Of a stretch of 64,000 nt of DNA, positions 32,095-63,594 are shown piece by piece (position 1 is the first letter of the stretch; the number at the start of each line of letters is the position of its first letter). Where the stretch lies: positions 7,936,001-8,000,000 of the forward strand of contig OZ360219.1 in assembly GCA_977017645.1 (NCBI GenBank), written 5' to 3'. Source of the DNA: Torpedo marmorata (lineage: Eukaryota). The notes beneath the pieces are model-generated. The model saw only the letters and a program-made list of their open reading frames with translations. It did no database searches and was not told where the DNA came from. The translations under genes and the position numbers were made by a program.

Positions 32095-32977
32095 CCGTAT
32101 TTGACGGCATATAGGACCCACTGGCATATAGGACCCCGCCCCCATTTTTAGCATTAGATTTTAGGAAAAATTTGTTTTAGTGTATTTACCTTCACAGCAG
32201 CAACACGTCCTCCTGCCCACCACACGCTGAGGCTCAGGCTGCTTCCCCCCACCGTCCAAGCGCCGATTGATTGACAGGACCAGCGGGTGCGCAAGAGTGT
32301 GAGGAAGAGAAGCCAGGACAACGGGCAGGGCCCAGACCCACCGTCGCGGGGAGCAGACGATCAATTGCTTGCTTTGAGGGGAACGCTGGGCCTAGGTGAT
32401 CAGGCTCCACGCTGAGCCTTTGTTCGACGCGCACGGCTCCCCCGAACAGATTGAATGAGGCGCGGGGGTGGGTGGCAGTGAGTGAGCGGCCTGTTGAGCT
32501 GAGCTTGACAGGCCGCTCGCTCACTGCCACCCACCCCCGCGCCTCATTCAATTTGCTCGGGGGTCCGTGCTCATCGAACAAAGCCTGATCATCGAGGCCC
32601 AGTGCTCCCCTCAAAGCACTGTGGGAGAGAGGGAGGGAGGGAGAGGGCGAGCAGGCGGGCGGGAAGGAGGGAGAGAGCGAGCCTTCTTACCGGGGGAAGT
32701 GAGCGGAGGCAGTGGCGGCGGCGACTCTGGAAAGCACGTGCCACGCAAGGGAAGGTGGTCCGCGAAGCTGCAGGCCCACTTCCTGGACAGCCGCAGCACC
32801 TCCGCGGGCTTCTTGAAGCTGGGTGAGTAGTTTGAGCGCTTTACTCCTGTCACCAACTTGTGGATGAAAGCTTCAACTTGGTGCCCAAAATGGCGGCACC
32901 AAAATGTCACCTTTGCATATAAGACCCGGGGTGGTTTTTGGGATAAAAAGGGGGGTCTTATATGCTGTCAAATACGG
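32095..32977. mobile_element. Non-autonomous Tc1/mariner (pogo/Tigger-type) element, 883 bp
   Basis: TIRs CCGTATTTGACGGCATATAGGACCC and GGGTCTTATATGCTGTCAAATACGG, TA at 32093-32094 and 32978-32979, GC-rich non-coding interior. Confidence 0.85.
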
Positions 32978-34280: not shown

Positions 34281-34778
34281 ATATAGGGCCGCACTAACAT
34301 CGTTGGCCGAAGGGCCTGTAACTGTGCTGTAATGTTCTATGTTCATACAAAATTATGAGATGCATAGAATGAGGAAATTACCCTCAGCTGGGGGATCAAC
34401 AAAGAGATGTAAATTTAAGGACTATGGCAAAAAATATTAAAGGAGAAATGAGGAACCATTTTATTCCTCCTTGAGATGGTTGAGAGCTAAAACCTACTGC
34501 CTGAAAGAGGGGTGGAAGTCAAATCATTCATTTCATTTAAAAATTATCATGGTCAATGCCATGTATCCAGGATGCTCTTTCACTGGGAGAGACATTAAAT
34601 TGTCCTTTGAGGTCAGCATCGTCCCAAGGGCTGGATTGATAAGGGGTTATTCCCACCTTCCAATGCTTCTGAATTCTAGCTGTACTCCATCTACACTGGC
34701 AGAGTGTCTCCTCAATGAAAGTCATCATCGGAATGACTGGAGAATGTCAGCACCAGACCAGGATGCTATAGTACATTC

Positions 34779-35638
34779 TGTAAGAGCCGTAGGCTCAATA
34801 ACCATATAACAATTACAGCACGGAAACAGGCCATTAGGCCCTTCTAGTCCGCACTGAACCAAACACTCCTCTCTAGTCCCACCCGCCTGCACCCTGCCCA
34901 TAACCCTCCACTTCATTCTCATCCATATACCTGTCCAACTTTTTCTTAAATAATAAAATTGACTCTGCCACCACTACTTCTCCCGGAAGCTCATTCCACA
35001 CCGCTACCACTCTCTGAGTAAAGAAGTTCCCCCTCATGTTACCTTTAAACCTCTGCCCCTTAACTTACCTTAATCGCGGTGCTCCGGTGCCTCGACGGGT
35101 TATGGAGAAGTTGCAACGTTTGTAGGCCGTCCTCAGCCTGTTTGTGCTCTGCGCATGCGCTGGAGTGCCAACGGGCGCATGCGCAGTCTGAAATTGACGT
35201 CATTGTGCGCGGTGTAGTGGGAGATGTAGTATGCGTGGTGGAGCGTGAGCAGTGGAATAGGAACATGGAGCATGCGCGAATCGGAAGGAATAGGAAAAAG
35301 ATGGTGACGTAGGAGGGTGAGTGAGATCGCCATATCTTTTATTGACCATTTCATACATCGTTTCATAGATCATTTCATCGAGCTTTTAAACTAGTTTATT
35401 TGTGGTTTAAAGTAGTTTAATTGAACATCTGAATACAGTCAAAAGGAATCATTTAAAGGAACTCATACATCATTTTCAAGAACTGTTTATTTTTAAGTCA
35501 TTGAAGATTACTGCAAGTCACGTGTGTAAATAAAGTTTTTGAACATATTGGACTTTGTTGGTAAATTAATTGAAACGCGTCAAAGACAAGTATCTCACTT
35601 AGCCTCCAGGTGACTATTGTTGGATCGAAGTCACCACA
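34779..35638 (+). repeat. 5' LTR (TG...CA), interrupted by a LINE fragment
   Basis: Aligns with 40225-40834 once the insert is removed; about 16 substitutions by my count plus 2 indels. Confidence 0.92.
34803..35060 (-). mobile_element. 5'-truncated CR1-type LINE 3' end inserted in the 5' LTR
   Basis: Absent from the 3' LTR and bounded by TAAC (34799-34802 and 35061-35064). ORF 34725..34922 shows CR1 3' sequence. Confidence 0.85.
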
Positions 35639-36090
35639 TTATAGTCAATAAAGTGGCTGTTTGGAACAGAAAATTGAAGGAAAGAAGATAGAATAATCTC
35701 TCTGTGCTTTGGACTGATATTTAAAATAAATGGTGGCCATCTTGAAGATGCCTCGAGTTGGGGGCAGTTTGTAATCCACATCCATCTGCCATGAGTAACA
35801 TCCAGAGAGGGATTTAAAGCTTCAAATCTTATAGTAAAGTGTACTATAAATACGTTGGAGAAACCATTTTTGGAAAATCAGCTATATTATTGACGGATGT
35901 TGTGGTTGAAACTCGTTTGTGAATAGCAGCACATTACAGTCATTTGAAGTGGTAGGCATAAGTCTGTGGACTCCTGTGTATCTTTGGCAAGTAAGAACAC
36001 AGATTGGAATTGCTGCCGCTGGTCCATTGGGGACTGTTGATTTGGCTAGTGTTGTGTATGCTTGAAGGACAGAGGAACAAGACAAGTAAA

Positions 36091-38010
36091 ATGGCCGCAG
36101 CAGCCTCCGATACAGCAGCCACTGATGTATCAGCAACTGACGCAGCAACCGCTGATGTTGCTGTTGAGGACCAACGTATTGAAGACATGAAGGTTGCGGA
36201 TATTAAAGAAGAATTGAAGCGACTGAAACTAGATTTAAGTGGAAATAAAAAGGTTCTTATCGCAAGATTGAAGCTGGCAAAGGATAAACAAGATGATAAC
36301 TTGGAAATGGCTGAAATTGTGTCACCAAATGATGAAGATATTGAAGAGGTTGAAGATGCAAAGGATATACAATTCGAATTGGATAAAGCGGTAAGTATGA
36401 AGACAACATATGAACTACAGGATGAAATTCAAGCAAGTGACAGTGTCTCAAATGTTGAAAGCAGGAGAAGCAAACGAACTTCTGGTTTGAGCTCCAGAGT
36501 TTCTCGTACTTCAAGTTCTGCATCGTCACGTACAAGGAATGATGTTAAATTGGTCGCTCTTCTTGCACAACAAAGATTTCTTAAGGATAAACATGTTTTA
36601 GAAGAACCGGAGGAGGAACTAAGAAAGAGACAAGAGCAGCTAAGAAAGAGAAAAGAGCAGCATGATCTGGAAACAGATATTGCTATTGCCATAGCCAGAA
36701 AGAAAGCAATAGAAGGCTGAATGGTATCTGGTGCTCGAAATAAATTATCTAAAGTATCTGATAATAAAAGGTCATATTTAAAAAAAGTCACAGGAAAAGA
36801 AACCAACCAAAAGGATAGATATTTTAGAACCAAGGATACAAGACTTGCATATACAAGGACAAACCTTTCAAGAGCATTATCGTATCGAGTCACATGTAAC
36901 AGTGGTAACATCTGAAAGCAAAGCTGCGGCTTGGGTTCAGTCGAACGATGCAGCTTCCTTGTTATTTGAGTCAAGCAACAGAAATATGGAAGAAACTACA
37001 TCAGTGAGGTTTCCAGATGCATTACCTGCAACAAGAGACGGTGAACAGAGCAATGTATTGTCATCCAAGGAAATACAAAATGAAATTGCTGCATCATTGT
37101 TTCAGTTACAGTCTCTCTCTTCTTTACCCAAGAAAGAGATACAAACTTTTGATGGTGATCCACTTCAGTATCAATCATTTATGAGATCTTTCAAACGTAA
37201 TATTGAAAATAAATGTCAAGATCGTGATGAATGTCTTTATTATTTGGAAATGTTCACAAAGGGACATCCAAAAGAACTGGTAAAGAGTTGTAAACAAATG
37301 TCTTCAGAAAGAGGATTAGACAAAGCTAAGGCTTTACTGGAACAATATTTTGGCAACAAGCATCGAATTGCTTTAGCTTATATAGATAAAGCTCTTAAAT
37401 GGACATCAATAAAACAAAATGATGTAAAGGCTCTGCAAGAATATACTCTGTTTTTAAGAGGATGTTGTAATGCTATGGAAGATATCGATAATATTCGTGA
37501 GCTTGAAGTGCCTAGTAATATGCGAATCATCTTAGAAAAATTACCTTACAAGTTATGGGATAGATGGAGAAATTTGGCTTGTGATTTACAAGTAAATTAC
37601 GGTTGAAAAACTACCTTAAAGGATTTGGTAAATTTTCTTGAACAACAGGTGTATGTTGAAACAGATTCACTATTTGGAAATGCCAGAGATAATTCAATGG
37701 GCAAAGATGTAAGGAGGTCTAACTCACAGCCTAGTCCGAAATTAAAAAGGAGTACTTTTGCTACTAATGTGTCAGTTATAAGTAAAGAAAAGGACAAAGT
37801 AAATAAGGAAAAGGAAAGTTTGCCTGATGAAAAGAGTTGTTTGTTCTGTAAAGGTGGACATGCTTTGGAAATGTGTTTACGATTGGAAAAGAAGGAACAT
37901 AAGGAGAAGATCACTTTCTTGAAGGAAAATGGAATATGTTTTAGCTGTCTGTGTAAAGGGCACATCAGTAAAACTGCGAGAAGCGAATTAATTGTAACAT
38001 ATGCAATTTG
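36091..38010 (+). pseudogene. Disrupted BEL/Pao gag: SAP domain, coiled coil, DUF1759-like capsid region, Cys/His knuckles
   Basis: SAP motif MKVADIKEELKRLKLDLSGNKKVLIARL; LPKKEIQTFDGDPLQYQSF; CLFCKGGHALEMC and CFSCLCKGH. Split across ORFs 36004, 36721, 36845 and 37625 by a stop and frameshifts. Confidence 0.85.
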
Positions 38011-39582
38011 AAACATCCTAGAATTTTGCATATCCATAACAGAAACAAGAAATTGGAAAAGGAGCAAACAGAAACAAAGGAAACAACAGAAAATAATGTT
38101 ATAACCTCGGTTCAGACAAGTGGTCTTACTGGGGCCGGGGTGAATAACTGCAAACTTTCGATAGTGCCTGTACAAGTCAAGACCAAGAAAGGGGATGCAA
38201 TAGTAAAAACATATGCATTTCTAGACCCAGGCAGCACTGCATCTTTTTGCACGGAAGGATTAATGAATAAACTTGATATTCAAGGAAGAAAATCAAGAAT
38301 TATGTTAAAAACCATGGGACAAGAAAAGGTCGTTGAAACCAGCATTGTTTCAGGCTTAGAGGTTGCTGGATTATATGACAAAATTTTTTGTGATCTTCTA
38401 AGTTTATATACTCAGAAGACTATGCCTGTGCATGAAGGAAATATTCCTCATCAAAAGGATATCCATCATTTAGCTTATCTGTGGAAGATTTATTTACCTG
38501 AAATTAATTCTGAGATAGAAATGCTGATTGGTTCAGATGTGCCAAAGATTTTGGAACCACTAGAAGTAATACAGAGTAGAAGGAATGGACCTTACGCTAT
38601 TAGAACCAAGCTTGGTTGGACAATCAATGGACCACTGCAAAGAAATAATGATATTGCTCAGGAACAGTTAGTGATAAATATTAATAGAATTTCGGTTGTG
38701 AAAGTTGAAGAGTTAAGCGAAGAGCAAAAAACTGTGAATAAGAAAATCACTTTTGAAGAAAAGAAAACAGATCAATGTGAAAATAAATCAAGGGTATTTA
38801 ATACAACATTGAAGGAATTATTTTCACCAAAAATGGATGAAAGTGAAGTATTAGAAGATGTTGCAAATAATACTATTGATTGTTCATGTGTAATTGAATC
38901 AGATACAGGAATAAAACAAGTGATTGAAAACAAATCTGAACGTAGATTTTGTAGTTCAGAGATTACAACAAACAAAGCTAATGAAGAAATATTGCAATGT
39001 GATGTAAAACTGGAGAACACAGAAAATTGTGCTGATGGAATAAAGAATAATGTGAATGATAATTTAATGCAATTGAATTCAGAGAACAAAATGTTGAAAG
39101 GGGAATTGGAAATATTAGATAATCATGAAAACAGTAAACAGAAAGATTTAATTGTAAGTAAAATTCGCAAAGTCAGAAAATGGAAGAAAAGAATAACTGC
39201 TGAAGAAATGAATACAGTTATTGAAGAAAGAGATTCAGCATTATCAAAATGTAAAAGGTTGGAGGAAGAGATTAATATTTTGAAAGGGAACAAGTTATTG
39301 GTTATTAACACAAAACAGTTGACTTTAAAAAACAATCAAGAATGTAAATTGAATGTTCAACAATTAACAATGCAGAAAGAATGTGATATTGCATTTCAGA
39401 AATGTAACAAGCAAGATGAAGAAATTAAAAAATTTCAAGTTTGCCACAGTAAGATTGACAATGGAAATATCAATGTATCACATGATATTTTGACTTCAGA
39501 TCAAATTATTAATTTCTCGGAAAGAACTGAGACTGAATTGAAAGTTGCAAAATTGGATTTGGAATTGCAGGAAAGGCAATAG
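38008..39582 (+). CDS. BEL aspartic protease fused in frame to a foreign coiled-coil segment containing a MIPOL1-like region
   Basis: TYAFLDPGSTASF protease motif and PYAIRTKLGWTINGP. After ~38716 the sequence is non-retroelement; 39151-39450 (RITAEEMNTVIEERDSALSKCKRLEEE...) resembles MIPOL1 as I recall it. Confidence 0.75.
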   Translation: MKHPRILHIHNRNKKLEKEQTETKETTENNVITSVQTSGLTGAGVNNCKLSIVPVQVKTKKGDAIVKTYAFLDPGSTASFCTEGLMNKLDIQGRKSRIMLKTMGQEKVVETSIVSGLEVAGLYDKIFCDLLSLYTQKTMPVHEGNIPHQKDIHHLAYLWKIYLPEINSEIEMLIGSDVPKILEPLEVIQSRRNGPYAIRTKLGWTINGPLQRNNDIAQEQLVININRISVVKVEELSEEQKTVNKKITFEEKKTDQCENKSRVFNTTLKELFSPKMDESEVLEDVANNTIDCSCVIESDTGIKQVIENKSERRFCSSEITTNKANEEILQCDVKLENTENCADGIKNNVNDNLMQLNSENKMLKGELEILDNHENSKQKDLIVSKIRKVRKWKKRITAEEMNTVIEERDSALSKCKRLEEEINILKGNKLLVINTKQLTLKNNQECKLNVQQLTMQKECDIAFQKCNKQDEEIKKFQVCHSKIDNGNINVSHDILTSDQIINFSERTETELKVAKLDLELQERQ

Positions 39583-39834
39583 AGACCAGAGTGGTTAAAG
39601 AGACCTGTTTATTAAAATCAAAAGGATCAGATAAATATTCAAATTCTAGTTCTAAGAGTTTAAATTCTTCACATGAGAAGTGGAATGCTGAAGAAAGGAA
39701 TAAAGTGAAACGACATGCTGAAGAAGTGCCTCGTGTTAAATTCAAAAGAAAAACTGTATCTATTTTGTCTGAGGAAGATTTGAGGTTTACTGGTTGACAT
39801 TTTAACTCAAAGATTCTGGAAATAAAATAACTTT

Positions 39835-40019
39835 AAAGAGACATTGTAATTATAATGGATGATTCAGCTCCAAGAAATTCCTGGTTACTAGGAAAAATTA
39901 TTGAGACTATTCAAGACAAAAAGGGACTTGTGCGTCAAGTGCGAATTAAAACTAAGACTGGTTTTCTAAACAGACCTATTAACAAGGTCTGTCTTTTGTT
40001 GGAGACGGAGGAACTTTGA
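39835..40019 (+). pseudogene. BEL integrase C-terminal remnant (DUF5641-like)
   Basis: Manual translation: DIVIIMDDSAPRNSWLLGKIIETIQDKKGLVRQVRIKTKTGFLNRPINKVCLLLETEEL*. Confidence 0.85.
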
Positions 40020-40224
40020 TTAATATAAACTGACTTTATTTGTTGTTGTATACTTCACAGGTTACAGACTTTTGTTGATTCAGAGTTATGGTAAACTCTG
40101 GTTTTATGAAGAAGGAAGAAAGAAGATTTGTGTATTGTTTGAATGTTATGGTTATTGTTATTTATAATTTATAGTGTAATTATTATTTAAGACATTGCGT
40201 CTAATTATAATAATTAGGGGCTGG

Positions 40225-40834
40225 TGTAAGAGCCGTAGGCTCAATAACTTACCTTAATAGCGGTGCTCCGATGCCTCGACGGGTTATGGAGAAGTTGCGA
40301 TGTTTGTAGGCCATCCTCGGCCTGTTTGTGCTCTGCGCATGTACTGGAGTGCCGACGGGCGCATGCGCAGTCTGAAATTGACGTCATTGTGCGCGGTGTA
40401 GTGTGGGAGATGTAGTATGCGCGGTGGAGCGTGCGCAGTGGAATAGGAACATGGAGCATGCGCGAATCGGAAGGAATAGGAAAAAGATGGCGACGTAGGA
40501 GGGTGAGTGAGATCGCCATATCTTTTATTGACCGTTTCATACATAATTTCATAGCGTTTCATAGATCATTTCATCGAGCTTTTAAACTAGTTTATTTGTG
40601 GTTTAAAGTAGTTTAATTGAACATCTGAATACAGTCAAAAGGAATCATTTAAAGGAACTCATACATCATTTTCAAGAACTGTTTATTTTTAAGTCATTGA
40701 AGATTACTGCAAGTCACGTGTGTAAATAAAGTTTTTGAACATATTGGACTTTGTTGGTAAATTAATTGAAACGCGTCAAAGACAAGTATCTCACTTAGCC
40801 TCCAAGTGACTATTGTTGGATCGAAGTCACTATA
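40225..40834 (+). repeat. 3' LTR, 610 bp (terminal CA mutated to TA)
   Basis: Follows the PPT and is followed by TSD CATTC. Confidence 0.92.
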
Positions 40835-40849
40835 CATTCCATCCTGCAT

Positions 40850-48543: not shown

Positions 48544-50846
48544 TACAGTGACTTCAATCCAACAAATAGTCACTTGGAGGCTAGGTGAGATATTTGTTCT
48601 TGACGCGTTTCAATTAATTTACGAACAAAGTCCAATATGTTCATAATGTTTATTAACACATGATGACTTGTAGCAATCTTCAATAACTTAAATATCTTCT
48701 TTAATGAAATATAAACAATTCTTGATAACGATGCTTAATAACGATTCTTCAAAATGTCTATAAACTTCCTTCAAATGATTCCTTTAACAATCATTTAAAC
48801 GTTACTTTAAATGTTACTTTAAACATGGCTTTAAACGTCCTTTATACGGTCAATGAAAGATATGACAATCTCACTCACCCTCTTCTAAGCCGCCATATTT
48901 GATACTACCACTTCTCCGATTCACGCATGCTCTAACCGCACATACTCCTGTCACTTCCCCACTGCGCATGCGCCCGTCAGCACTCTCGCGCATGCGCAGA
49001 GTATTCAATAGGCCTAGCATGGCTTAATAATCTCCGTGTCTCCTCCGAAACCCACTGAGACCATCGGAACGCCGCGATTACGGTAAGTAACCAAGCCTAC
49101 GGCTATTACACCGGCCCCTAATTATTATAATTAGACGCAATGTCTTAAATAATAATTACACAATCAATTACAAATAACAGTAACCATATAACATTCAAAC
49201 AATATACAAATGTTCTTTCTTCGCAAGACCAGAGTTTACCATAACTCTGGATCAACAAAAGTCCGTAATCTGTGTAGTATACAACAACAACATAAAGTCA
49301 GTTTGTATTTATCAAAGTTCTTTTATCTCCAGAATCTTTAAGTTAAAACGTCGACCAGTAAACCTCAAATGTTCCTCAGACAAAATAGATAGTTTTTATT
49401 TTGAATTTAACACAAGGTACTTCTTCAGCATGTCGTTTCACTTTATTTCTTTCTTCAGCATCCCACTTCTCATGTGAAGAATTTAAACTCTTAGAACCAG
49501 AATTTGAATATTTATCTGATCCTCTCGATTTTAATAAACAAGTCTCTTTAACCACTGTGGTTTCTATTGCCTTTTCCTACAATTCCAAATCCAATTTTGC
49601 AACTTTCAATTCAGTCTCAGTTCCTTCCGAGAAATTAATAACTTAATCTGAAGTGAAAATATTATGCGATACATTGGTACTTCTGTTGTCAACCCTGCTG
49701 TGATAAACTTGAAATTTTAAAATTTCTTCATCTTGCTTGTTACATTGCTGCAATGCAATATCACTTTCTTTCAACATTGTTAGTAGCTGAACATTCAATT
49801 TACATTCTTGATTGTTTTCTATAATCAACTGTTTTGTGTTATTAACCAATAACTTGTTCTCTTTCAAAATATTAATCTCTTCCTCCAACCTTTTACATTT
49901 TGATAATGCTAAATATCTTTCTTCAATAACTGTATTTATTTCTTCAGCAGTTATTGTTTTCTTCCACTTTCTGACTTTGCGAATTTTACTTACAATTAAA
50001 TCTTTCTGTTTAATGTTTTCATGATTATCCAATACTTCCAATTCCCCTTTCAACATTTTTTTCTCTGAATTCAATTGCATTAAATTATCATTCACATTCT
50101 TCTTTATTCCATCAGCACAATTTTCTGCGTTCAACAGTTTTACATCACATTGCAACATTTCTTCATTGACTTTGTCTGCTGTAACCTCAGAACAACAAAA
50201 TCTACTTTCAAATTTGTTCTCAGTCACTTGTTTTATTCCTGTCTCTGATTCAATTACACAGGAATAATCACTAGTATTATTTGCAATATCTTCTAATACT
50301 TCATTTTCATCCATTTCTGATGAACACAATTCCTTCAATGTTGTTTTAAATACCTTTGATTTATTTTCACATTGATCTGTTTTCTTTTCTTCAAAAGTGA
50401 CTTTCTTATTCACAGTCTTTTGCTCTTCCCTTAACTCATCAACTTTCACAACAGAAATCCTGTTGATATTTATCGCTAACTGTTCCTGTGCAATATCATT
50501 ATTTCTTTATAATAGTCCATTGATTGTCCAACCAAGCTTGGTTCTAACAGCGTAAGGTTCATTCCCTCTACTCCGTATTATTTCCAGTGGTTCCAAAACC
50601 TTTGGTACATCTGAACCAATCAGCATTTCTATCTCAGAGTTAACTTCAGGTAGATAAACCTTCCACAGATAAGACAAATGATGGAAATCATTTTGATGCG
50701 CAATGTTTCCTTCGTGCACAGGCATAGTCTTCTGAGTATATAAACTTGGAAGATCATAACATTTTTTGTCATCCAATCCAGCAACCTCTAAGCCTGAAAC
50801 AATGCTGGTTTCAACGACCTTTTCTTGTCACATGGTTTTCAACATA
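48544..50846 (-). mobile_element. Second, 5'-truncated copy of the BEL/Pao element with the same foreign insert (3' LTR 48544-49110)
   Basis: ORFs 49643..50449 and 50507..50776 are colinear with ORF 38008..39582. PPT AATTAGGGGCCGG on the minus strand; LTR ends match copy 1. Confidence 0.92.
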
Positions 50847-62216: not shown

Positions 62217-62555
62217 ATCTAAATACATCTGACACGGAGAAAGATCCTGCCTCCACCAGCTCGTCCAGAAGCCAACAGTGGAGCATCTTCCAACATAGTT
62301 CTCTTATACACGCTGCTTACACTGTCAACGGCCCGGGTGGCAATATCCCAGTGTGGAGAGGGGTGCATGAGGAGGGGAGGGTTTGGGCCGGTAGTGGGGA
62401 GCCTTTTTGCCGTAGTAGTTTGTAAATGCATGCATGATGAGCCGAACTCTGCAACAGGAGGCAGACGCCGCAGACCTCAGGCTCAGACTTGCGCGTGCTT
62501 TTTGCAAACGCGCGGCATGAGCATTGATTGAGCGACTAGAGAAGTACGACTACAC

Positions 62556-63229
62556 CAGTGGTTTTCAAACTGCCCCCCTAAACTCACATTCCACCTTAAG
62601 CAATCCCTATGCCATAAGTGCTCTGTGATTAGTAAGGGATTGCTTAAGGTGGTATGTGAGTGAAAAGGAAAGGTTGAGAACCACTGCTCCAGACCCAATT
62701 GTTACTGAAATAATTTACTTGAGAAAAATTGTCATTGGCCCGTTTCCTTTGGAGTTATGAAACCGTGCACATAACGAGTCAATTAGGTACGATTAAAACA
62801 GTGGTTTTCAAACTTTTTCTTTCCACTCACATACCACCTTAAGTAATCCCTTACTAATCATAGAGCTCTTATGGCATAGGAATTGCTTAAGGTGGAATGT
62901 GAGTTTAGGGGGGCAGTTTGAAAACCACTGATATAACTTGTCTTCATGATATTTTATTATGCACGTTATGTTATGTACTAGTACCAAGTACAACATTATA
63001 CATATTAGTGTATTCCAGTGGTTTCATAACTCCAAAAGAAATGGGCCAATGACAATTTTTCTCAAGCAAAATATTTCAGTAACAATTGAGTCTAGAGTAG
63101 TGGTTCTCAACCTTCCCTTCCCACTCACATACCACCTTAAGCAAACTCTGACTAATCACAAAGTACTTATGGCATAGGGATTTGCTTAAAGTGGAATGTG
63201 AGTTTAGGGGGGCAGTTTGAAAACCACTG
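62556..63229. mobile_element. Composite cluster of hAT MITE modules (62556-62686, 62799-62930, ~63098-63229) forming large inverted repeats
   Basis: Three ~130-bp palindromic modules with CAGTGGTT(T/C)TCAA ends; 62556-62765 is inverted at 63016-63229. Confidence 0.8.
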
Positions 63230-63594
63230 AGTTATATGAATCAATTATAACAGACCTTTTATTCCATATGATAGAATCATTAAAACATAACACTACTACA
63301 GCACATAAAACAGGCATGATAGAACCATGGATAGAACCATTAAACCATAGAACGATCACTTCAGCACTGAAAGGCCATGATAGATCCATAGATAGAACCA
63401 TTAGGGCAGCAAAAGCATGGGGACACCAGCAGTGGTTAGTGGACGTTGTACAACAACAAGCCACACACAATTTGACTTGAAATACCCCCGCCTTTCAACC
63501 ATTCAGCGACCATTGCAATTTGCAAACTCTGGGTACAATACAATTTCCAGAAACTGTTCTGTCGTTCATAATTTAAACAACCTGAATAAAATAA

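Follow-up and report, generated by a model that had tools for sequence, protein, structure and literature searches.

A non-autonomous BEL/Pao LTR retrotransposon family of Torpedo marmorata carrying spliced BRCA1, MIPOL1 and Elongin A sequence with a MIPOL1 back-splice junction

Introduction

What has taken the place of the polymerase region in a BEL/Pao LTR retrotransposon of the Torpedo marmorata genome, and how did it get there? The element lies in the window analysed here, a stretch of 64,000 nucleotides from an assembly of 6.2 Gb. An earlier note, made from the sequence alone, had proposed that a single host gene, MIPOL1, was captured as an intronless mRNA in place of pol, that the resulting element spread in trans and that it resembles the transducing retroviruses. 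In this work we followed up these claims by locating the cargo in the host genome, tracing the element family across its copies and analyzing selection on its reading frame. Our results reveal that the pol region was replaced by sequence from three host genes, namely BRCA1 and Elongin A, both spliced, and back-spliced MIPOL1.

Architecture of the element

The element in the window is a non-autonomous BEL/Pao LTR retrotransposon. Its features outside the cargo are the following:

34779-40834: whole element, with two LTRs, a 5-bp target-site duplication (TSD) and SAP-gag-protease, and without reverse transcriptase (RT), RNaseH or integrase core
34774..34778, plus strand: 5′ target-site duplication CATTC (sequence), matching 40835-40839
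34779..35638, plus strand: 5′ LTR, beginning TG, split at 34799-35060 by a later 262-bp insertion
35336..35346, plus strand: 11-nt LTR site, complementary to the stretch directly behind the LTR; same pair in other copies
35644..35653, plus strand: primer-binding-site position, not TGG tRNA-type; complementary to 35336-35346, one base shorter in the window copy
36091..37606, plus strand: SAP domain and BEL gag (DUF1759), disrupted in the window copy by stops and frameshifts of its own
37607..38722, plus strand: Cys/His nucleocapsid region, DUF1758-like aspartic protease and first part of the PR-RT linker
39815..40019, plus strand: BEL integrase C-terminal tip (DUF5641), behind a stop codon common to the family
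40210..40224, plus strand: polypurine tract
40225..40834, plus strand: 3′ LTR (TG...TA)
40835..40839, plus strand: 3′ target-site duplication CATTC (sequence)
48553..50846, minus strand: a further family member, 5′-truncated and 91% alike to the first, which likewise carries the tri-gene cargo and the back-splice junction

The two LTRs, polypurine tract and TSD reported in the earlier note are thus in place; the LTRs of the window copy diverge by K2P 0.025 (574 columns), and 5-bp TSDs were also seen in five further copies (L141, L146, L147, L150 and L172). Likewise, the protease and BEL linker do run on in frame through about 290 aa of non-retroelement sequence, in a frame (37972-39582; 536 aa, ATG-independent) that is free of stops and holds both the protease motif and the linker. 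Pfam matched SAP, DUF1759 and DUF5641 in the window element, the latter two over the cut-off, together with a weak DUF1758/Asp protease match below it, and in the seven frames scanned it returned no RT, RNaseH or integrase core, as the earlier note had read. No env-length frame lies between the integrase tip and the polypurine tract of the window copy. The SAP domain was considered as a fourth captured piece and ruled out: two of the seven pol-bearing copies examined carry it, so it is native to the pol-bearing family.

The 262-bp insert at 34799-35060 is a repeat fragment; it interrupts the 5′ LTR after 20 nt, shows a 4-bp duplication and is related to other repeats of the window. A nested set of MITE-like inverted repeats and a near-perfect hairpin of 62 nt occur at 62551-63230 and 32439-32563.

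Host origin of the cargo

In an exhaustive protein search (1.84 billion representatives), the cargo obtained 40 matches at E ≤0.001, which fit a cartilaginous fish. The best was shark MIPOL1 (E 2.1e-24), and the third-best a protein of 1,943 aa with RING and BRCT domains, named BRCA1 in its source, that aligns to cargo residues 3-144 at 51% identity. A separate search with the 288-aa cargo stretch yielded newt MIPOL1 as the sole match among 718 candidates (E 1e-5), and a PDB sequence search with the cargo returned weak vimentin coiled-coil matches only. The similarity to MIPOL1 goes far beyond that of generic coiled coils: besides the shark and newt protein matches, the cargo is 82% identical in DNA over 330 nt to the MIPOL1 exons of its own genome. 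Elongin A was recognized through less diverged genome copies (PDB 8oev chain M, E 6e-28; PF06881), the match aligning to window positions 39537-39794. The three host genes were located, with AG/GT-bounded exons, on contigs C40 (MIPOL1), C61 (BRCA1) and C41 (Elongin A). Using our own exon labels (a-i for MIPOL1, B4-B7 for BRCA1, E1-E5 for Elongin A), the cargo of the window copy is composed as follows:

38723..39151, plus strand: spliced BRCA1 piece (host exons B6/B7), 75% DNA identity to host
39144..39449, plus strand: spliced MIPOL1 exons f (part), g and h, 82% DNA identity to host
39449..39450, plus strand: back-splice junction, the end of MIPOL1 exon h joined to the start of upstream exon b
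39450..39593, plus strand: 5′ half of MIPOL1 exon b, then exon c; 81 nt are deleted internally
39593..39814, plus strand: spliced Elongin A piece (host exons E1 and E3, E2 deleted), including SEEDLRF, 82-88% DNA identity to host

The identification of the cargo as MIPOL1 therefore stands for its middle (about 39144-39593, 78-89% DNA identity to host overall) and not for its first ~430 nt, which are BRCA1, nor for its end, which is Elongin A. The MIPOL1 segment assigned to 39151-39450 holds, with a second piece from upstream exons behind it, in which the loss of 1 nt in the window copy creates the stop at 39580-39582. SEEDLRF (~39768), where BEL sequence had been thought to resume, belongs to host Elongin A, and BEL resumes only near 39815. 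Mapping on the host mipol1 gene places the segment across exon junctions, and the BRCA1 exon junction near 38838 spans the site of an 8.7-kb host intron. The capture of intronless host RNA is in this respect borne out; its description as plain mRNA is not, for reasons given below.

The same genes are present at greater length in a less diverged form of the element, hereafter the long form, which contains BRCA1 exons B4 (part), B5, B6 and B7 (first 402 nt), MIPOL1 exons f (part), g and h followed by b, c and d (18 nt), and Elongin A exons E1 (part), E2, E3, E4 and E5 (64 nt). Each piece is about 90-98% identical to the host exons and has no introns. All three are sense-oriented, in the host frame and in frame with gag-pol, and none extends to the 3′ end of its own gene. 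The captured BRCA1 piece lacks the RING and BRCT domains, and the window form lacks the Elongin A domain. In addition to the host gene on C41, the genome contains an Elongin A paralogue with introns (C25:175318134-175337048), about 75-78% identical to the cargo, and further PF06881 clusters on C62 and small contigs, which may be a separate expansion.

The MIPOL1 back-splice junction

Host exon b is situated ~206 kb upstream of host exon h (exons b-h at C40:64385712-64591881). In the element, the last base of exon h directly precedes the first base of exon b at 28 of 30 loci, judged from BLAST ends; one of the other two is in register with two mismatches and the other has a short deletion. The h-b junction is base-exact in all ten long copies and decayed in both window copies; some 17 nt into exon b, the long form departs from the host sequence. 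Exon b is entered at its natural splice acceptor, a tandem NAGNAG (L094) whose upstream AG is the one chosen in the element; between shark MIPOL1 isoforms X1 and X2 there is a length difference of one residue. A genomic exon duplication was sought in the host MIPOL1 locus (~340 kb, no N) and none was found there, each exon being single-copy and in normal order. Because the MIPOL1 part is in back-splice order, plain mRNA is not its simplest source.

Several observations make a circular MIPOL1 RNA the likely template of this piece. The cargo contains nothing from exons a or i and runs once through 587 nt of a 780-nt b-h circle, with no base repeated. The introns that flank host exons b-h measure ~50 and 62 kb, and long flanking introns are usual for circularised exons. 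An exonic circ-Mipol1 is on record in mouse, its exons not being stated in the source (PMC9888537), and an exact non-colinear exon junction is the criterion applied to circRNA-derived pseudogenes (PMC4897178). Together with this junction, the MIPOL1 cargo shows the confinement to circle exons and the absence of poly(A) expected of such pseudogenes. Four sequencing runs, in which RNA and DNA are not distinguishable, were compared with host MIPOL1 exon h; one gave no alignments and the rest showed depth on repeats. Among contigs from four runs matched to exon h, element copies dominate, and the matches listed include no host-type h-b joint. The length of the putative b-h circle, 780 nt, is divisible by three; its junction is in frame and no stop interrupts it, so that it would present an endless reading frame.

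Lineage and spread of the family

The genome-wide count confirmed that the element spread widely. An exact 26-mer over the window-type deletion junction occurs 4,705 times (its reversed control, 0), and an exact 20-mer of the long form 72 times, a difference of ~65-fold between markers. We put the number of internal copies at ~8,000, a rough estimate because only 8 of 14 close copies keep the 26-mer intact. Replacement of pol by spliced host RNA, followed by spread that was likely in trans, is the part of the earlier note that is supported, by the crossed exon junctions and the thousands of marker matches.

A host-rooted tree of the shared MIPOL1 block (48 copies, taken from earlier matches and thus non-random) forms a ladder, with the long form at 0.04-0.09 from the host, intermediates at 0.05-0.14 and window-type copies at 0.21-0.27. 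LTR pairs diverge by 0.086-0.131 in three long copies and by 0.015-0.086 in 15 window-type copies. Six large deletions lead from the long to the window form (285, 24, 120, 81, 195 and 111 nt), all multiples of three, as sized from four of five pairs that aligned, with single long copies deviating by 1-2 nt. The MIPOL1 f-h block was kept through every trimming step, and the form that expanded was the one that had been trimmed and had diverged more (70-91% to host exons). One capture thus produced the older long form, and stepwise trimming the window form. No one- or two-gene intermediate was present among 12 Elongin-bearing loci. Window-type cargo has drifted strongly towards A+T (GC 0.29 vs 0.375 in the host), its shared changes being mostly C>T, G>A and C>A.

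Contigs from four other organisms fill 27-30 of the 30 bins into which the cargo region was divided, with one contig spanning protease to MIPOL1 and another bridging the back-splice junction; the family is therefore not private to the T. marmorata genome.

Selection on the reading frame

To analyze selection we used 35 window-type copies (14 obtained by similarity, 20 plus-strand matches at the head of the pattern list, plus the window copy) and defined as shared any change present in at least 75% of them. The shared cargo changes comprise 43 synonymous, 114 non-synonymous and one scored as a stop. Same-spectrum simulation predicts 9.1 stops where at most one is seen (P 0.0002); the shared class includes host-side changes, roughly a fifth at most as judged from the long form, which lowers the expectation to ~7. 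No stop site is common to more than 5 of the 35 copies. Private cargo changes, on the other hand, behave approximately as neutral (24 stops vs 19.3 expected). The synonymous share of the shared cargo changes is not above neutral in the same simulation (P 0.135), and the raw NG86 dN/dS of ~0.65 between copy and host cargo was rejected as a sign of selection on the basis of this spectrum-matched neutral control. A value of (1/3)^6 for the six in-frame deletions would be too strong, as codon-periodic microhomology may favour in-frame deletions.

In the gag core and protease, by contrast with the cargo, the window-type branch shows a synonymous excess in all four outgroup pairs (P ≤0.024); one private-class gag value is also low (P 0.017), and the N-terminal region has no synonymous excess on this branch. 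The integrase tip also shows an excess, which we set aside because its only outgroups are pol-bearing copies and the signal may predate the capture. A frame of 1,296 codons, from before SAP to the stop just behind the Elongin A piece, is unbroken in one of the 35 copies, and that stop is present in most. Our reading is that the open frame is under selection, that gag-protease is constrained and that the cargo amino acids are not measurably so. The cargo is thus likely a translated spacer and not a working host protein. It is on this count, the lack of measurable constraint on cargo amino acids, that the likeness to transducing retroviruses fails with regard to function.

Pol-bearing relatives and priming

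Pol-bearing BEL relatives, of the kind that copying in trans would require, are present in the genome. One decayed relative (L087) retains RVT_1, Peptidase_A17, integrase H2C2 and DUF5641, and its RT region yields 2,383 first-look candidates. The seven pol-bearing copies examined, however, are only ~70-80% alike to the window copy (70-79% DNA identity for those with Peptidase_A17), and their LTRs are mostly non-alignable to it.

No TGG-type primer site lies behind the 5′ LTR. Among 17 window-type copies in which the site could be located, 10 show complementarity between the 11-nt LTR site and the primer site, as do two pol-bearing copies (L156 and L159) whose LTRs are otherwise non-alignable, a pairing that appears to tie the two groups by a cis element. 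It resembles the self-priming of Tf1-type elements, and the BEL family may possibly self-prime instead of relying on a tRNA. The LTR-PBS stretch folded no more stably than shuffles (z 0.29), and no compensatory changes in support of self-priming were seen.

Capture mechanism and alternatives

We regard it as probable that the cargo was captured when a BEL reverse transcriptase switched template onto host RNAs, likely a circular MIPOL1 RNA among them, and that the product was then copied in trans with its cargo serving as a spacer. The RT in a BEL virus-like particle would have left the element RNA for host RNAs packaged alongside it and then returned, replacing pol, in one or several cycles; the minus strand would have run from BEL RNA to Elongin A mRNA, through 587 of the 780 nt of the MIPOL1 b-h circle, to BRCA1 mRNA and back to BEL. 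The element would supply its own Gag-protease in cis and borrow RT and integrase, likely from pol-bearing BEL relatives acting in trans. The cargo would be kept open as a translated spacer, for example because its RNA thereby avoids nonsense-mediated decay or is packaged in the course of translation, and not for any BRCA1, MIPOL1 or Elongin function. Gauged without the true parent BEL, microhomology at the junctions is thin: there are overlaps of ~6 nt (Elongin A-BEL) and 2 nt (BRCA1-MIPOL1), while unassigned fillers of 11 nt and of 20 nt occupy the remaining two. All three switches into the cargo preserve frame, pol is replaced and not interrupted, and no poly(A) or inner TSD was found at the four cargo junctions. 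The 20-nt filler, which in the long form lies in frame between MIPOL1 exon d and Elongin A, has no match under five mismatches in the seven pol-bearing copies and might be a remnant of a fourth captured RNA. We also lean, with somewhat less assurance, towards a fuller account in which a particle RT copied a circRNA and two mRNAs into one in-frame gene, which became a major mobile family (probably ~8,000 internal copies, also present in related species) under selection for translatability alone.

The same LTR-element capture could have used a linear MIPOL1 template, made by trans-splicing or exon repetition, or the RT could have jumped between two mRNAs at exon ends. In DNA, a circle and an exon-repeated linear RNA are indistinguishable, the exon ends share AG, and Dong et al. 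(PMC4897178) warn that non-colinear junctions can arise in other ways. We nonetheless hold a linear template to be unlikely: the MIPOL1 piece lies wholly within exons b-h, runs through less than one round of the circle and takes nothing from exons a or i, its junction is exact at both splice sites, the flanking host introns are long, and an exonic circle of this gene is on record in mouse (PMC9888537). Decidedly less credible still is a chimeric processed pseudogene made by a LINE and inserted into, or recombined at the DNA level with, a BEL copy that lost pol afterwards. The genome is LINE-rich and two junctions carry fillers, yet there is neither poly(A) nor an inner TSD, no piece reaches the 3′ end of its gene, a circle would offer no poly(A) for LINE priming, and every piece is sense and in frame with gag-pol in an element whose pol is cleanly replaced; we consider this origin very improbable.

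A different question is whether the cargo protein or RNA has a function of its own, either as a coiled-coil scaffold for particle assembly or as a shield against silencing, in which case small RNAs against the cargo would strike BRCA1, MIPOL1 and Elongin A too. The orientation and frame of all pieces, the purging of stops over a long lineage, the raw dN/dS and the persistence of the MIPOL1 f-h block would all suit such a role. The raw ratio, however, dissolves in the spectrum-matched simulation, in which the synonymous share is not raised; the form that expanded, with ~65-fold more marker matches, is the trimmed and more diverged one, and RING and BRCT are missing from the captured BRCA1 piece, as is the Elongin A domain from the window form. 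A working cargo thus seems improbable to us, even more so than a linear template, and we retain the translated spacer as the preferred reading.

Relation to known systems

LTR-mediated retrocopies are known in animals, including a two-gene chimera in the Pao element BATUMI and a four-gene mouse 'Super' retrocopy (Tan et al. 2016, PMC5131818). The BEL family shares with those described there the substitution of partial spliced host RNAs for internal ORFs, several genes per unit, short overlaps or small fillers at the switches (2-26 bp, a range that includes our 11 and 20 nt), further non-autonomous rounds and a sense and in-frame bias, and it likewise has no poly(A) or inner TSD. It differs in its back-spliced piece (the string 'circ' is absent from the main text of that paper) and in keeping gag-protease in one long frame over thousands of copies and a long lineage. 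Maize Bs1, as presented in the same paper (PMC5131818), is an LTR element with partial exons of three host genes and switch points common to all of its one to five copies; it is a plant element with one piece out of frame and no back-splice. Among circRNA-derived pseudogenes, 33 mouse circRFWD2 copies are enriched for LTR flanks (Dong et al. 2016, PMC4897178), and the resemblance to our family extends to the non-colinear junction, the restriction to circle exons, the lack of poly(A), the LTR association and the multiple copies. The text of that work leaves the mechanism open, whereas the BEL element displays a replaced pol and both switch points, with a junction that is in frame in a gag-bearing element, lies between two captured mRNAs and is present in >100x as many copies (PMC4897178).

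Captures of single host genes provide a further comparison. Transducing retroviruses carry host mRNA within an LTR element, typically of single genes and with purifying selection on the cargo; the present element departs from the v-onc type in its BEL/Pao backbone, the absence of env, its three fragments and the lack of measurable cargo constraint. In crocodilian ERVs that captured KIT-ligand and nectin3, host mRNA within an LTR element was amplified as a lineage, as here, but these are reported as single genes in few copies with purifying selection on the cargo protein (PMC4299795). The earlier note knew of no described BEL element with this cargo. We found no report either, neither of the family nor of any gag-bearing LTR element that contains a back-splice junction, in a literature search whose scope did not extend to Repbase/Dfam, most subscription journals or supplements; RNA capture by BEL/Pao elements and multi-gene chimeras as such are, however, known (PMC5131818). 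Multi-gene LTR capture and circRNA pseudogenes are each established, and it is their combination and scale for which no report was found.

Because the back-splice sits between visible template-switch points in a gag-bearing LTR element, it supports LTR reverse transcriptase as one route to circRNA pseudogenes. In earlier multi-gene captures the copies number from few to few dozen, whereas the BEL tri-gene family counts thousands. Since older and intermediate forms persist in the genome, selection on the frame can be separated from selection on amino acids. If the fuller account is true, the family would be a direct fossil of circRNA entry into genomes and a record of an ancestral-germline circMIPOL1 with an endless frame, as well as a natural experiment on the long open frame in non-autonomous LTR elements. 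The thousands of BRCA1-, MIPOL1- and Elongin A-like fragments are a source of confusion for annotation, read mapping and circRNA calling in such fishes, and could yield small RNAs against the three host genes. BEL copies are also found in the introns of host MIPOL1 itself (L068, L075, L084, L085 and L087), where four window-type cargo copies and one pol-bearing BEL copy lie in two orientations; given the density of the family, we treat the window-type copies at this locus as chance insertions.
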